Source: an uncultured Acidimicrobiaceae bacterium
Lineage (GTDB): Bacteria; Actinomycetota; Acidimicrobiia; Acidimicrobiales; UBA8190
Direction of reading: 5' to 3'
NCBI GenBank assembly: GCA_963842145.1
Contig: CAWJFJ010000012.1
Span: 227,060 to 291,059, forward strand
DNA length: 64,000 bases
The notes below the pieces were generated by a model. That model was not told where the DNA came from. It searched no databases and saw nothing but the letters and a program-made list of their open reading frames with translations. Both the position numbers and the translations under genes were made by a program. This document shows positions 1,646 through 42,062 of the stretch, piece by piece; the first letter of the stretch is position 1, and every line of letters begins with the position of its first letter.

Positions 1646-1881
1646 GTCTGTTCCCCTCGTTGGCGACGCGCAACAAGCGGCGTCGAGATGGCAGATACGA
1701 CCTCGCCGCTTCCCAAGCAGCGCCCGTGATCCAGTCTTCTTCTCGGCAGTCCTTGGCGCAACGCGCAGGCCAGGTAGGGCCAAAAGCCCCCTGGTAACCC
1801 CCCCCGTCACCGCTGACCACTCAGACGGCCGGGTGCGGGAAGCTCAAAACAAGGTCAGTCACTACCGCCTGATGGCGACCG

Positions 1882-1906
1882 GGATCACTTCATATGTGGG
1901 TGATCC
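1882..1906. repeat. Left end site of the double-recombinase element (imperfect palindrome GGATCAC-N11-GTGATCC)
   Basis: GGATCACTTCATATGTGGGTGATCC. Its outer 14 nt, TATGTGGGTGATCC (1893-1906), are the exact reverse complement of 4255-4268. Confidence 0.75.
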
Positions 1907-1966
1907 ACCAGGCGGGATGACGTCACCGGCAGGGTGGAGCCTTCCCGATGGAAGGAGATCACCCAC

Positions 1967-3005
1967 ATGCCGCTCCAGTTATCAGTTGAGCGTTCTTTAG
2001 CTCCCTCGGGCGAGCAGGTCGTCCGACTCGGACACGAGCTTCTCGACGACTACCTGACGTTCCTCGCAGGCCGAGCCCGGCCAAACTCTGTCCTGGCCGC
2101 CGCCTTCGATCTGAAGGTGTTCTTCTGCTTCGTGCAGAAGGAACCGGCGCAGGTCACGAGCCGTGACGTGCTCAACTTCATCGGCGCCCAGCGAGCACCA
2201 CGGACGCAGACGAAGGTCGTGCGCATCTCCGATGGCGGATCGGGACTGTCGGCCCGGACGGTGGCCCGGCGGCTGTCGTCGATCTCGGGATTATTCGCCT
2301 ACCTGATTGTGCGCGGAGACGCCGGCGTGTCCACGTCGCCGGTGCCGAGGGGATTGATGACTCGCCGGGCCCGACGAAACAATGGGCGGGCGGCGCCGCT
2401 CGTGCGCACGCCGAAACTCCTGCCGAGAATCCTGCAGCCGCAGGAGGTTGACTCTCTGGTGGCTGCGCTGCGCACAAAGAGGGACAGGGGCCATGGTCGA
2501 GGCCATGGTCCTCGGTGGCCTGCGACGCTGCGAGGTGCTCGGTCTGCGGATGGCCGACCTCCAGATCGGTGAGCGCAAGGTGTTCATCGCCGACGGGAAA
2601 GGCGGACGCCAGCGCGTCGTTCCCATGTCGGGGCGGTTCTTTGCATCGGTGGCCCGCTATCTCAACGAGGAACGCCCCGCTGACGCCGTCACCGACGTGG
2701 TCTTCGTCGTGTTGAAGGGTAAGCGTCGGGGACAGCCGTTGTCGGCCTATGGGATCGACGAGATCCTCGAGTTGGCCAAGGAGCGGGCCGGCCTTGTCCA
2801 CGCCACGTGCCATGAGCTGCGCCACACGTGTCTCACGCGACTTCGTGAAGCGGGCATGGCTCTCGAAGCCGTGCAGGCCCAGGCCGGGCACGCCTCGATC
2901 GAGACCACCCGCCTCTATCTGCACCTGGCCGACGACTGGTTGGCCGGCGAGTACCGCCGGGCATCGGAAGCCATCGACGCCCAGGCCCTGGCGGTGGTCC
3001 GATGA
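1967..3005 (+). pseudogene. Tyrosine recombinase/integrase 1, frameshifted
   Basis: The N-terminal SAM-like domain is in the frame of ORF 1934..2572 and the catalytic domain (HELRHTCLT, GHASIETTRLYLH) is in the frame of ORF 2382..3005. The frames rejoin as LRTKRDR/AMVEAMVLGGLR if one G is removed from GGGG at 2487-2490. RBS GGAAGGAG precedes the ATG at 1967. Confidence 0.8.
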
Positions 3006-4237
3006 AGGCCCTTGCACACACGCATTCGGCGCCCTCTCTGTCCGAGACCATCGCGGCCTATCTGGGCCGAATTGTCGTTGTCTTTGCGGCCTCAAAGTGT
3101 GACCAGCTTCGGGAGCGACCTGAGGATGTTCGCCTTCTTTCTCGCCGACAACCATCCGGAGGTCCAGGGGGCCAGTGACCTCGAGCGCCGTCACATCGAG
3201 AGCTACAAGAGCCATATGGCCACCGCCACCGGAACCAAGGGCCGGCGCCTGGCCACGGCCACCGTCCGGCGGCGGCTGTCGACGCTGCGGATGTTCCTGG
3301 AACGCATCACGGAATGGGGTTGGGACGACGCCCCGCCCCGGGTGCTCATCTTCGCCGGGGATCTGCCCAAGTGCGACGAGCCGTTGCCCAAGTTCTTGGA
3401 CGACGCCCGCTTCGCCGCTTTCATGCGGGCAGCCAGGAGCGAACCCCGTCCCCTTCTGCGCCTGACCATCGAATTGCTGGCCGGACGGGCATGCGGGTGG
3501 GCGAACTGTGCGACCTCGAAGCCGACGCCACGGTGAAGATCGGCGACACCCACTGGCTGCGCATCCCGGTCGGGAAGCTCCACAACGACCGCTACATTCC
3601 GCTGCATCCCCAGCTCGTCGACATGCTCGAGGAGTGGTCGCATCACCCTGACTGCGGGGTGGGAGGCCGGCTGCTCAGCATCGAGGGTCGTCCGCTCAAC
3701 CGGCATGCCGTCACCCGCATGTGCGACCGTTGTGCGAAGAAGGCGGGCATCGGACACGTCCACCCCCATCAGTTGCGGCACACCGTGGCCACCCAAGCGG
3801 TGAACCGCGGCATGAGCCTCGAGGCCATCGCCGCCCTCCTCGGCCATCGTTCCATGTCCATGACGATGACCTATGCCCGCATCGCCGACCGGACCGTGGC
3901 CGACGAGTACTTCGCCGTGAGCGAGAAGGTCGAAGCTCTGTATGACAAGGCCCCCATCTTGTCGGCCAACGCCGAAGGTCCGAGCATGCGCCGTCTGCGC
4001 CGTGAGCACCACCGAATGCTCGGCAACGGCCTCTGCACCCGGCCTGTCGAACTCGATTGCGCCTTCGAGACCATCTGCGAGAGCTGCACCTACTTCGCCA
4101 CGTCTGTCGAGTTCCGTCCGACGCTGCGGCGACAGCTGAAAGACGCCACCCGCAAGGGCCAGACCGGCCGCCAGAAGCTCTTCAGCGGCCTTCTCGAGGG
4201 GATCGAAGGGGTGAAGGACCTCAAAGGCGAGCAATAA
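3002..4237 (+). pseudogene. Tyrosine recombinase/integrase 2 (Cys-rich C-terminal extension), at least two frameshifts
   Basis: The ATG at 3002 overlaps the upstream stop. Reading switches frame near 3065-3075 and again at GCCGG 3480-3484 (expected GCCCGG, giving ELLARTGMRVGELC). The catalytic part (HQLRHTVAT, GHRSMSMTMTYA) and the CxxxxxxCxxxxCxxC tail are in ORF 3314..4237. Confidence 0.75.
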
Positions 4238-4254
4238 TCAAGGATCAATCGGAC

Positions 4255-4280
4255 GGATCACCCACATAACACCCTGATTC
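4255..4280. repeat. Right end site of the double-recombinase element
   Basis: GGATCACCCACATAACACCCTGATTC. The first 14 nt are the inverted copy of 1893-1906, and the distal TGATTC resembles the TGATCC arm of the left site. Confidence 0.7.
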
Positions 4281-5575
4281 ATGATTGGGGCGGCGCTGGG
4301 CTTCGGTTCTAGCGTCTCGGGAGCTTGGCGGCCTGGCTCTGTAACACCCTGCCGCCTGAGGGTTGGCCTCAAGTAACGAAGTGTCAGCCGCCGAGTTCCT
4401 CGGCCACGGCGTGGCTCGAAAGAGGCGAGCAAGAACCGGTCTCATCAGGACTGCCCGACGTGGCTCCCACCAGCGACCAGGGAGGAACACGATGGTGCTC
4501 ATCGGCATCGATCCGCACAAGGCGACTCACACTGCGGTGGCGGTCGACACAGAAGAGACGGCACTGGCCGAGCTCACGGTGAAAGCAGACCGTCACCAGG
4601 TCGAGCGTCTCCTCAAATGGGCGATCGACTTTCCGGATCGACGCTGGGCCGTCGAGTCGGCCAACGGGCTCGGGTTCTTGTTAGCCCAGCAGCTCGTGGC
4701 TGCCGGCGAAGACGTCGTCGACGTCCCGCCCACCTTGGCGGCCCGGGTTCGGGTCCTCGGGTCGGGCAAGACGCAGAAGAACGACCGCAACGACGCCTTG
4801 TCCACCGCCATCGCCGCGATGCGGGCCAAGAGACTGCGCAACGTCGTGGCCGAGGACCACGGAGGCGTCTTGCGCCTGCTGGTGGATCACCATCACGACC
4901 TGGGGTCGCTGCGCACCCAGGCCGTCTGTCGGCTCCATGCCCTGGTGCGGTGCCTAATCCCAGGTGGGACGGGAGTTCGGCTCTCCCGCGGCCCGTGCGG
5001 CGGTTGTGCTGCGCAGTGTGCGACCGACCAATGCAGTGGACGTCGAACGCAAGCGCATGGCTCTTGGTCATGTGGCTGACATCAGACGTCTCGACGCCGA
5101 GATCGCCGCGTCCAAGGTCCGCATCGAGACCGCCGTGGCGGCCTCGGGCACGAGTGTGACCGAGCTCTATGGCGTCGGGCCGGTCGTGGCCGCCTTTCTG
5201 ATCGGCCACAGCGGCGACATGGCGCGGTTCGCCAACAGGGACCACTACGCCTCGTATAACGCCACGGCTCCTATCGAAGCCTCGAGCGGTCCGAGGGTGC
5301 GGCACCGGCTCAACCCCCGGGGCAACCGACGCCTCAACCACGCCATCCATGTGATCGCCATCTGCCAGATCCGCCACCCGACCGAAGGGCGGAAGTACTT
5401 CGATCGCAAGGTGGCCGAGGGCAAGACCACCAAGGAAGCGTTGCGGGCACTCAAGCGTCAGATCTCGAACGTCGTGTATCGCCAGCTGGTCATCGATTCC
5501 GGCAGGTGACATAGCGGACCCGGGAGGGCAAGTAGGGGCGACTCCTATGGCCAGCGCGACCGGCTCACACCCTGA
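4269..5575 (+). mobile_element. IS110-family element 1 (boundaries tentative)
   Basis: The transposase lies at 4492-5509. ACACCCTGA occurs at 4269-4277 and 5567-5575, which would delimit about 1.3 kb, a typical IS110 size. No terminal inverted repeats, as expected for this family. Confidence 0.4.
4492..5509 (+). pseudogene. IS110-family (DEDD) transposase, frameshifted
   Basis: The N-terminal part, MVLIGIDPHKATHTAVAVD...KNDRNDA, is in ORF 4363..5079. The C-terminal part, ...GVGPVVAAFLIGHSGDMARF...RLNHAIHVIA..., is in ORF 4964..5509. The frame changes near 4960-4972. RBS GGGAGGA precedes the ATG at 4492. Confidence 0.85.
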
Positions 5576-5842
5576 CACCGGCTCTTCAGTTCGGCCACTT
5601 CCCGGATCCAGCACAACGATACGTCCGGCCCCCGGCCGGCGCTTCAGCGCGCCCAAATGACCCCTCTTGACAGAAAGAGGCTTCGTGTTGGTATGGGCCA
5701 CGAGGGGTCACACCAGACCAGATCCTCGCCCCGCGACAGACTGCCCAAGGCGACCTCAGGCCGTCCGGTATCACCTCGGTGACCGGGCGCAATGTCGCCC
5801 CCGCCACCCAGCGATATTGATGATCCAGTGAGGCCCTGAGGA

Positions 5843-40900: not shown

Positions 40901-42062
40901 ATGGTTTCCACAGTGGCGGCGGCGGTCCCGCCTTACACCGGACTCGAAGTGTTCTGGTTCACGATCATCGCCATCTTGTGGGTGGTCTACTTCGTGCTCG
41001 AGGGTTTCGACTTCGGCGTCGGCATGCTGCTGCCGGTGGTGGGCAGAAACGACCTCGATCGCAGGGTGTTGATCAACACCATCGGCCCGGTGTGGGACGG
41101 CAACGAGGTCTGGCTGCTGGTGGCAGGGGGCGCCACCTTCGCCGCCTTCCCGAACTGGTACGCCACCTTGTTCAGCGGCTTCTATCTGCCATTGTTCTTG
41201 ATCCTGGCGGCACTCATCTTCCGGGGAGTGGCCTTCGAGTTCCGGGCCAAGCGCGCCCTGCCGGCGTGGAGGAGCACCTGGGATCACGCCATCTTCTGGG
41301 GAAGTCTGATCCCGGCTCTGTTGTGGGGCGTGGCCTTCGCCAACATCCTGCGTGGGGTCCCGATCGGGCGGCAGTTTAGCTATCTACGGGTCGTTTTTCA
41401 ACCTGCTCAACCCTTACGCGCTGGTGGGTGGGGTCACGACGCTGCTGCTCTTCGCCCTCCACGGTGCTGTCTTCTTGTCCCTCAAGACCACCGACGAGAT
41501 CCACGAACGGGCTTCCCGTGTGGCCAAAATCCTCGCTCCCGCTGCGACCGCCGCCCTGGTTGCGTTTCTGGCCTGGACCTACGTGAACGCCCACAACGCG
41601 CACGACACCGGACTGGTTCCTCCCTTCGTTCCTATTGCCGCCATCGTGGCGGTCTGCGTGGTCGGGTGGCTCCTGCGCGAACGACTGGAGGGTTGGGCCT
41701 TCGTCGCCACCGCCGTCGGTTTGGTCGGCTTGGTGGCCACGATTTTCTTGAATCTCTACCCGAGGGTGATGGTGTCGAGCATTTCTCCGGCCTTCAACCT
41801 CACCATCGGCAATTCGGCCTCGGCGCCATACACCCTCAAGGTCATGACCATCGTGGCATTGATCTTCACGCCGATCGTGTTGGTGTATCAGGGTTGGTCG
41901 TACTGGGTGTTCCGGGCGCGGGTGCGCCGACCGGGCTCGATCTCGGTTCCGCGCCACGGTACCGGCGGGTCATCGGGTCTTTCCGGTGCGGGGGACACCA
42001 ACCCGGCGCTCACGGCTTCAGGTGACGCCGACTCGCCTCCCGGTGAAGGCGGAAGCTCTTGA
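40901..42062 (+). pseudogene. cydB: Cytochrome bd oxidase subunit II, frameshifted
   Basis: FWFTIIAILWVVYFVLEGFDFGVGML...GPVWDGNEVWLL is in ORF 40901..42025, and YGSFFNLLNPYALVGG...YQGWSYWVFR is in ORF 41352..42062. Removing one G from GGG at 41366-41368 restores GVPIGGSLAIYGSFF. There is an unusual tail of about 50 aa after YWVFR. Confidence 0.85.

Follow-up and report, generated by a model that had tools for sequence, protein, structure and literature searches.

The insertion sequence (IS) described here occupies positions 4276–5682 of the window, a 64,000-nt stretch of an uncultured Acidimicrobiaceae bacterium (GenBank assembly GCA_963842145.1, contig CAWJFJ010000012.1, positions 227,060–291,059). 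It is very probably an IS110-group element that moves by bridge-RNA-guided recombination, with a bridge RNA of the IS621 type. The evidence consists of element boundaries taken from other copies, a left-end RNA fold with compensatory changes, covariation between guides and DNA, and the protein family. An initial annotation had noticed that the left junction is repeated within the 5' non-coding region and had proposed the internal copy as a bridge-RNA guide. The guide idea was right, whereas the right boundary given there and the reading of the motif as three-fold were wrong; the repeated 10-mer is, judged from the sequence, a predicted guide standing beside the site that it would have selected.

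Relatives of the IS were collected from eight genome-derived loci, including metagenome-assembled genomes (MAGs) of Acidimicrobiales and Acidimicrobiia, which provided six usable relatives with 61–94% protein identity, and from eighty metagenome-derived loci with 54–65% protein identity. The architecture described below is common to the relatives. Guides and their DNA partners were compared by partner-shuffle tests on distinct guide/DNA pairs from about 70 relatives, with 5000 shuffles each, and the left end was folded with RNAalifold on an alignment of 73 left ends.

Element boundaries and genomic copies

The element and its junctions are as follows.

4276–5682, plus strand: IS110-group insertion sequence with 1,407 bp of donor DNA, comprising the left end (4276–4491), the transposase gene (4492–5509), and the right end (5510–5682)
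4267–4275, plus strand: left junction, formed by the left target TAACACC (4267–4273) and the dinucleotide CT (4274–4275)
5667–5682, plus strand: right-end terminus, formed by TTGACA (5667–5672), the left donor GAAAGAGG (5673–5680), and the dinucleotide CT (5681–5682)
5683–5688, plus strand: right target TCG, followed by TGT

A BLAST search of the own genome with the IS identified four further full copies and one 5' fragment.

C12:526739–528156: IS copy
C16:169278–170697: IS copy
C12:11091–12506: IS copy, 93% identity
C15:130812–133807: IS copy, interrupted
C12:957788–958207: 5' fragment of the IS

Similarity among the copies starts at 4265–4270, depending on the copy, and ends at 5685 rather than 5575, with 93–100% identity up to 5685. 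The initial annotation had delimited an IS of about 1.3 kb, with a right non-coding end of about 65 nt, by direct repeats of ACACCCTGA. This delimitation fails because the motif copy at 5567 (5567–5575) lies inside the element, as the other copies continue alike to 5685; the real size is about 1.41 kb and the right non-coding end measures about 173 nt.

The dinucleotide CT is found at both junctions (4274–4275 and 5681–5682). Positions 4267, 4269, and 4272 differ among own copies that are otherwise 99.7–100% identical, and the left-junction variants TAACAC (window), TATCAC, TATCAT, and GATCAC each precede CCTGATTC. The flanks of other copies thus do not always equal the internal 10-mer. On these sequence comparisons, 4267–4275 is assigned to target-derived DNA and not to the IS. 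On the right side, TCG follows the dinucleotide in all own copies and in nearly all relatives, and the bases beyond it vary. Annotators should be cautious here: in a comparison of copies, the parts of the target that are conserved, TAWCAYC to the left and TCG to the right, resemble ends of the element. The hexamer TTGACA is present in most of the aligned right ends, a minority having the one-base variants TTGACG, TTGACT, and TTGACC; by analogy with IS621 (PMC11208158), it may serve as the −35 box of a promoter created at the circle junction.

The interrupted copy at C15:130812–133807 (L004/L007) is broken near the 3' end of the transposase gene by a 1.6-kb insert with an rve-type integrase, i.e., another IS, and its two halves share a 4-bp overlap (window 5461–5464). 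The 5' fragment at C12:957788–958207 is 420 bp long and retains the bridge RNA region; its left flank resembles window positions 1857–1883. Two short IS remnants are also present in the genome (e.g., C17:978330–978436). In two related MAGs (L011 and L012), the IS has a common right flank (GACTCGGATGGCCTC...) and unlike left flanks, which suggests a rearrangement at the IS.

Predicted bridge RNA in the left end

The alignment fold of the left end revealed a 5' stem-loop followed by two large loops.

About 4292–4464, plus strand: predicted bridge RNA of about 173 nt, with the 5' stem-loop (4292–4316), the target-binding loop (4319–4401), and the donor-binding loop (4403–4464)
4292–4300/4308–4316, plus strand: 5' hairpin
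4319–4337/4383–4401, plus strand: outer stem of the target loop, with compensatory changes
4351–4357/4360–4367, plus strand: inner hairpin of the target loop, with compensatory changes
4403–4417/4449–4464, plus strand: outer stem of the donor loop, covarying at 4403–4415/4453–4464

Base pairs that occur in at least two Watson-Crick types account for 7/9, 13/16, 4/6, and 8/12 pairs of the four helices, respectively. G·U cells in the left-end alignment number 649 when read on the plus strand and 56 on the minus strand, an asymmetry that favours a plus-strand RNA. The left end would encode a plus-strand bridge RNA in which a 5' hairpin is followed by two loops with guides. The loop architecture emerged from the alignment fold alone; in the minimum-free-energy fold of the single sequence (z = −1.8), long-range structure obscures it. 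In the donor loop, the linker at 4427–4443 is short and mostly unstructured at the place where IS621 has a 22-nt stem-loop. We also read CATGAT at 4280–4285 as −10-like.

Guides and their DNA partners

In the bridge RNA of IS621, two guides, left target and left donor, occupy the 5' sides of the two internal loops, pair with the bottom strand, and hence read like the top strand. The two right guides are placed on the 3' sides, and their partner is the top strand. The CT core forms part of the pairing, with the left donor guide ending at the first core base (PMC11208160, PMC11208158). Candidates for all four guides of such an RNA are present in the window copy.

4342–4350, plus strand: left target guide (LTG) UAACACCCU, placed just ahead of the inner hairpin 4351–4367 in the internal loop's 5' strand
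4377–4381, plus strand: right target guide (RTG) CGAAG, with a 3-nt extension (4374–4376) and handshake positions 4382–4383
4418–4426, plus strand: left donor guide (LDG) GAAAGAGGC, identical to the right-end terminus 5673–5681 (9/9)
4444–4448, plus strand: right donor guide (RDG) AUCAG, with handshake positions GA (4449–4450), reverse complement of CTGAT at 4274–4278

The 10-mer TAACACCCTG is found at both 4267–4276 and 4342–4351, as initially noticed. The internal TAACACCCT (4342–4350) takes the LTG place of an IS621-type bridge RNA and has the same sense as the left flank, with which it agrees in 9/9 positions in the window; UAACACCCU has the top-strand sequence of left target and CT, so that it can pair with the bottom strand. 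Its identification as a guide is supported by the loop position within covarying stems, by the flank sense, and by covariation with the left flank. In 48 distinct pairs from the 73 left ends, the left target plus core matches the LTG at 7.27 of 9 positions as compared with 5.91 for shuffled partners (0/5000 shuffles), confirming the guide-flank covariation that the initial annotation had suggested to look for. Guide and left flank change jointly, e.g., ACACCCT (window), ATGCCCT (L014/L015), AGTGCCT (most relatives), ACCGTCT (L058), and TCCGCCT (L093).

The other three guides gave similar results. CGAAG is the reverse complement of CT plus TCG at 5681–5685, and the RTG extension matches right-flank bases +4 to +8 at 2.64 of 5 positions (1.86 shuffled, 0/5000). 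The left donor plus core matches the LDG at 7.5 of 10 positions (6.83 shuffled, 0/5000); the final core base stays without a match, and the 8-nt LDG of IS621 behaves likewise. The RDG covaries with its DNA partner (GCTTGA with AGCAGG, GGTTGA with ACCAGG, GAATGA with TTCAGG, and CATTCA with ATGAGG), and the core plus right donor matches it at 6.68 of 10 positions (5.74 shuffled, 0/5000). At G4449, the donor loop's first handshake base, pairing with target position 7 is seen in 71/72 relatives and pairing with the own donor in 1/64. Since the relatives are not independent, the shuffle counts overstate significance; the direction is nonetheless alike in all four tests.

Twenty-five relatives have differing junction dinucleotides. 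The left dinucleotide matches the LTG in 24 of them, and the right one matches the LDG in 16, whereas the left one matches the LDG in only 3. The dinucleotides thus track the guides, which argues for a top-strand crossover directly after the dinucleotide (4275/4276), as in IS621, and hence for donor DNA comprising 4276–5682.

Taken as a mechanism, the IS would excise in circular form, with GAAAGAGG-CT joined to GATTCATG. In the donor loop, GAAAGAGGC (4418–4426) repeats the right-end terminus and AUCAG (4444–4448) would pair with the CTGAT found where the left end begins. The recombinase-RNA complex would then swap strands just 3' of CT at a site of the form TAWCAYC-CT-TCG.

The recombinase

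4492–5509, plus strand: gene for an IS110-family DEDD/Ser recombinase, with its frame shifted by one additional C in the run 4985–4987

The transposase gene assigned initially to 4492–5509 (1018 nt) stands insofar as both of its halves match IS110 Pfam domains; it is not one open frame and is spread over two. The first frame matches DEDD_Tnp_IS110 (PF01548, N-terminal, RuvC-like; 5.7e-22, 78.6 bits vs. a cut-off of 29) and the second one matches Transposase_20 (PF02371, C-terminal; 4.4e-16). The extra C is unique to the window copy and missing in the four other copies aligned; it reflects either decay or an assembly error. The other copies encode a single product of 338 amino acids, and an intact copy scores 144 bits (cut-off 140) against NCBIfam NF033542, 'IS110 family RNA-guided transposase'. 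With the IS621 transposase 8wt6, the C-terminal domain can be aligned (E = 2e-7), and S265-G266, an SG motif, then faces the catalytic Ser of IS621. D7, E55, D98, and D101 are invariant in an alignment of four sequences and may form the DEDD catalytic set, an assignment of our own based on these four sequences.

Repeats of the junction motif

The 8-mer ACACCCTG occurs on the plus strand at 4269, 4344, and 5567. The initial annotation saw no other exact copy by eye; there are two more in the window, at 41062 (minus strand) and 63476 (plus strand). With these, the window contains five copies; the expected number is 2.0, and 5 in 100 shuffles attain five. As to motif frequency, the answer depends on length: the 8-mer is common, with 284 copies in the 4.2-Mb assembly, and the 9-mer TAACACCCT is specific, being found only seven times genome-wide, i.e., six times inside IS copies and once at the left junction of the window.

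5567–5575, plus strand: third ACACCCTGA, in the apical loop of the hairpin 5559–5564/5577–5582 of the right-end structure

In the right-end alignment, most relatives have CAYCCTGA between two CCGGCTC repeats, irrespective of their target guide. The match of the 5567 motif to guide and flank (4.94) is close to that of shuffled partners (4.86), and 905/5000 shuffles score at least as high. As this copy does not covary with guide or flank, the motif is meaningful as a two-fold and not as a three-fold repeat.

Alternative explanations

Several observations weigh against a bridge-RNA-guided element of the IS621 type. The recombinase gene is broken in the window copy. No inner stem-loop is detectable in the donor loop, where the stretch from LDG to RDG (17 nt in the window, 12–30 nt in relatives) is mostly unfolded, and the left end has no match in Rfam 15 at E up to 10, so that the bridge-RNA reading draws on the alignment fold and not on a curated model. 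A simple scan detected no sigma-70-type promoter on either strand. At position 3 of the LTG (window 4344 and 4269), which is A in most relatives, the target usually has T, and the two match in 35% of relatives and in one of the six own copies; this is a systematic non-pairing position inside the guide. The TCG/CGA part of the right-target pairing is invariant and therefore rests on conservation and not on covariation. Finally, searches for an empty target site in 40 related genomes (C12b locus), in five close genomes (window locus), and by BLAST of rebuilt sites found none, and a scan across all fetched loci gave no clear case of an unoccupied family-type target; all that the search yielded was a paralogous repeat in G001, a genome of the same genus, reading GGGATCACC followed by CGTGTTGGTATGGG. 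Since no unoccupied site was found in the 40 related genomes, we infer the exact crossover position.

Other explanations of the repeated motif fare far worse. The initially proposed IS of about 1.3 kb (4269–5575), bounded by direct ACACCCTGA repeats and with an internal copy matching both ends, would account for three same-strand motif copies within 1.3 kb, and it has virtually no chance of being correct: it is refuted by the copy comparison, in which all other copies are alike for 110 nt further, to 5685, while the left-junction motif varies between copies and the 5567 motif is kept in relatives with unrelated targets. Likewise highly improbable is a match of the internal 10-mer to the left junction that arose by chance or from a shared duplication of the ends, with the protein alone picking the target. 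The background frequency of ACACCCTG in the genome would agree with such a coincidence, as would the 1–2 mismatches to the internal copy seen in five of the six own copies; against it stand the joint changes of guide and flank across relatives, the same behaviour of the other three guide-DNA pairs, and the restriction of the 9-mer to IS copies and the window junction. A function of the third motif in the subfamily of the window is also improbable. Here, a putative minus-strand RNA of the right end would expose CAGGGUGU in its apical loop, pair with the guide ACACCCUG, and sequester the bridge RNA, or else the motif would act as a half-site at the DNA level. The predicted minus-strand loop (5567–5574) is perfectly complementary to the guide over 8 nt, and a precedent exists in Asr9 and Ssr9 of ISPpu9, small RNAs (sRNAs) that flank the element and pair mutually, Ssr9 being described as having complementarity to an antisense RNA from the 5' untranslated region (PMC8450116). 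Loop motif and guide do not covary family-wide, however, and because most relatives share CCTG only, the interaction, if real, is confined to the subfamily of the window. As a family-wide target mimic or guide partner, the right-end loop was rejected, given the lack of covariation with guide or junction.

Comparison with IS621

The bridge-RNA reading makes this element an ordinary representative of the IS110 type, in which the DNA itself reveals the four guides together with both handshake positions. It shares with IS621 a DEDD/Ser recombinase, a left-end bridge RNA of similar length (173 nt vs. 177 nt in IS621), and the same order of 5' hairpin, target loop, and donor loop. Further common features are a 9-nt LTG that has the target sense and includes CT, an LDG that extends no further than the first core base, top-strand pairing of the short RTG and RDG, the handshake logic, and TTGACA near the right-end terminus. 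The differences concern the protein, which is distant (the C-terminal domain alone aligns), the donor-loop inner stem-loop, which was not detected in the clade of the window, the long right end (173 nt) with a conserved minus-strand structure, the target TAWCAYC-CT-TCG, and the host, an actinobacterial MAG of the Acidimicrobiales type. The assignment is to the IS110 rather than the IS1111 group, judging by the predicted structured guide RNA (4292–4464) upstream of the recombinase gene and by the left end, which is the longer one by a small margin (216 nt vs. 173 nt). The guide-target covariation in about 70 relatives may aid the annotation of IS110 ends and the mining of Actinomycetota for bridge recombinases.

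A structured element in the right end

5516–5609, minus strand: conserved structured right-end element (25 pairs × 74 relatives)

Of the cells formed by the 25 pairs in 74 relatives, 1652 are Watson-Crick. Those left over divide into 146 G·U and 51 other if the minus strand is read, and into 10 G·U and 187 other if it is the plus strand. This pattern points to a minus-strand RNA, and we consider the element most likely to be one. We read TATCGT (5621–5616, minus strand), 7 nt upstream of it, as −10-like.

The element resembles ncrMT1302 (Rfam RF02341), a small RNA of Mycobacterium, and matches the full model (positions 1–109) on the minus strand. The window copy reaches 33.1 bits, which is below the gathering score of 45; within the own genome, scores of 33–34 bits were obtained at every IS copy and nowhere else. 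Among the relatives, L024 (47.2 bits) and L064 (45.6 bits) exceed the gathering score, and the match was found at the same place in 7 of 20 relative loci scanned. In 150 other Actinomycetota genomes, seven sub-threshold matches were obtained, and none of them (0/7) has this transposase within 1.5 kb. Because the window score is sub-threshold and the outside matches do not lie beside a homologue of the transposase, homology to RF02341 is not established. Our literature search found no paper that mentions both Mcr11 and IS110.

A further possibility, which we regard as rather unlikely, is that the right end of a widespread actinobacterial IS110 clade encodes an opposite-strand sRNA of about 95 nt (5609 to 5516) that is a working part of the IS, e.g., a regulator of the transposase or the bridge RNA, and is evolutionarily related to ncrMT1302. 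If true, this would link a studied pathogen sRNA to IS110 and add a second RNA to a bridge-recombinase system. The right-end minus-strand structure is the sole part of the element that goes beyond what is known, and, if transcribed, would be an unreported accessory RNA of the clade. In the IS110-family element ISPpu9 of Pseudomonas putida, a small-RNA gene lies downstream of the transposase gene (PMC8450116, PMC12288879), and the predicted structured RNA of the window has the same position. Compared by description only, the clade of the window differs from ISPpu9 in having no family-wide complementarity between right-end loop and guide.

Target site and surroundings

4255–4268, plus strand: right arm of a 14-bp inverted repeat belonging to a neighbouring two-recombinase unit (left arm 1893–1906, 100% complementary)

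The initial annotation placed the left junction exactly at the outer edge of this repeat and saw a likeness to IS elements that insert into transposon terminal repeats. The 14-bp repeat itself was confirmed; it overlaps the 9-nt guide match by just 2 nt, and the crossover deduced above (4275/4276) lies 7 nt outside. The 14-mer is found three times in the genome, and its third copy (C17:403622) has no IS sequence in the 26 nt after it. Only one of the six IS copies, that of the window, abuts the 14-mer. The likeness was therefore not upheld, and the six IS copies and three 14-mer copies gave no evidence that the repeat itself is a target. IS4321 and IS5075 of the IS1111 group take as targets the inverted repeats that terminate members of the Tn21 family (PMC11208160). 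The IS of the window, also an IS110-family member, similarly lies beside the terminal repeat of another element; it differs in the left-end location of its RNA, as in the IS110 group, and in the scarce association with the repeat described above.

The region between the repeats and including them (1893–4268) contains two tandem tyrosine recombinase genes, each split over two frames with the SAM-like and catalytic domains apart; this two-recombinase unit is single-copy in the genome. The split recombinase genes together with the frameshift in the IS suggest decay or indel errors of the assembly.

Removal of the IS (4261–4275 plus 5683–5697) gives CCCA CAT AACAC C-CT-TC GTGTT GGTA TGGG, an imperfect palindrome with CT in the loop, and the rebuilt target folds as a hairpin (−10.7 kcal/mol, z = −2.2). 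Several relatives lie in CCCATAT...ATATGGG palindromes, a weak trend. A palindromic target as a rule was rejected, since only 21% of the rebuilt sites have z below −1.5 (mean z −0.57). ISPpu9 and ISPpu10 of P. putida insert into palindromic repeats (PMC8450116, PMC12288879), which the hairpin of the rebuilt window target resembles; in contrast to these elements, a palindromic context is found in just about one-fifth of the relatives of the window IS.

Directly to the right of the IS, 5684–5812 belongs to a repeat that is found three times in G001 with 75–80% identity. The repeat copy on contig C3 of this genome (G001:C3) is preceded by GGGATCACC, which resembles left targets of IS copies (GATCACC, TATCACC), and the left flank of the IS copy C12:11091 is homologous to sequence upstream of the G001 repeat.

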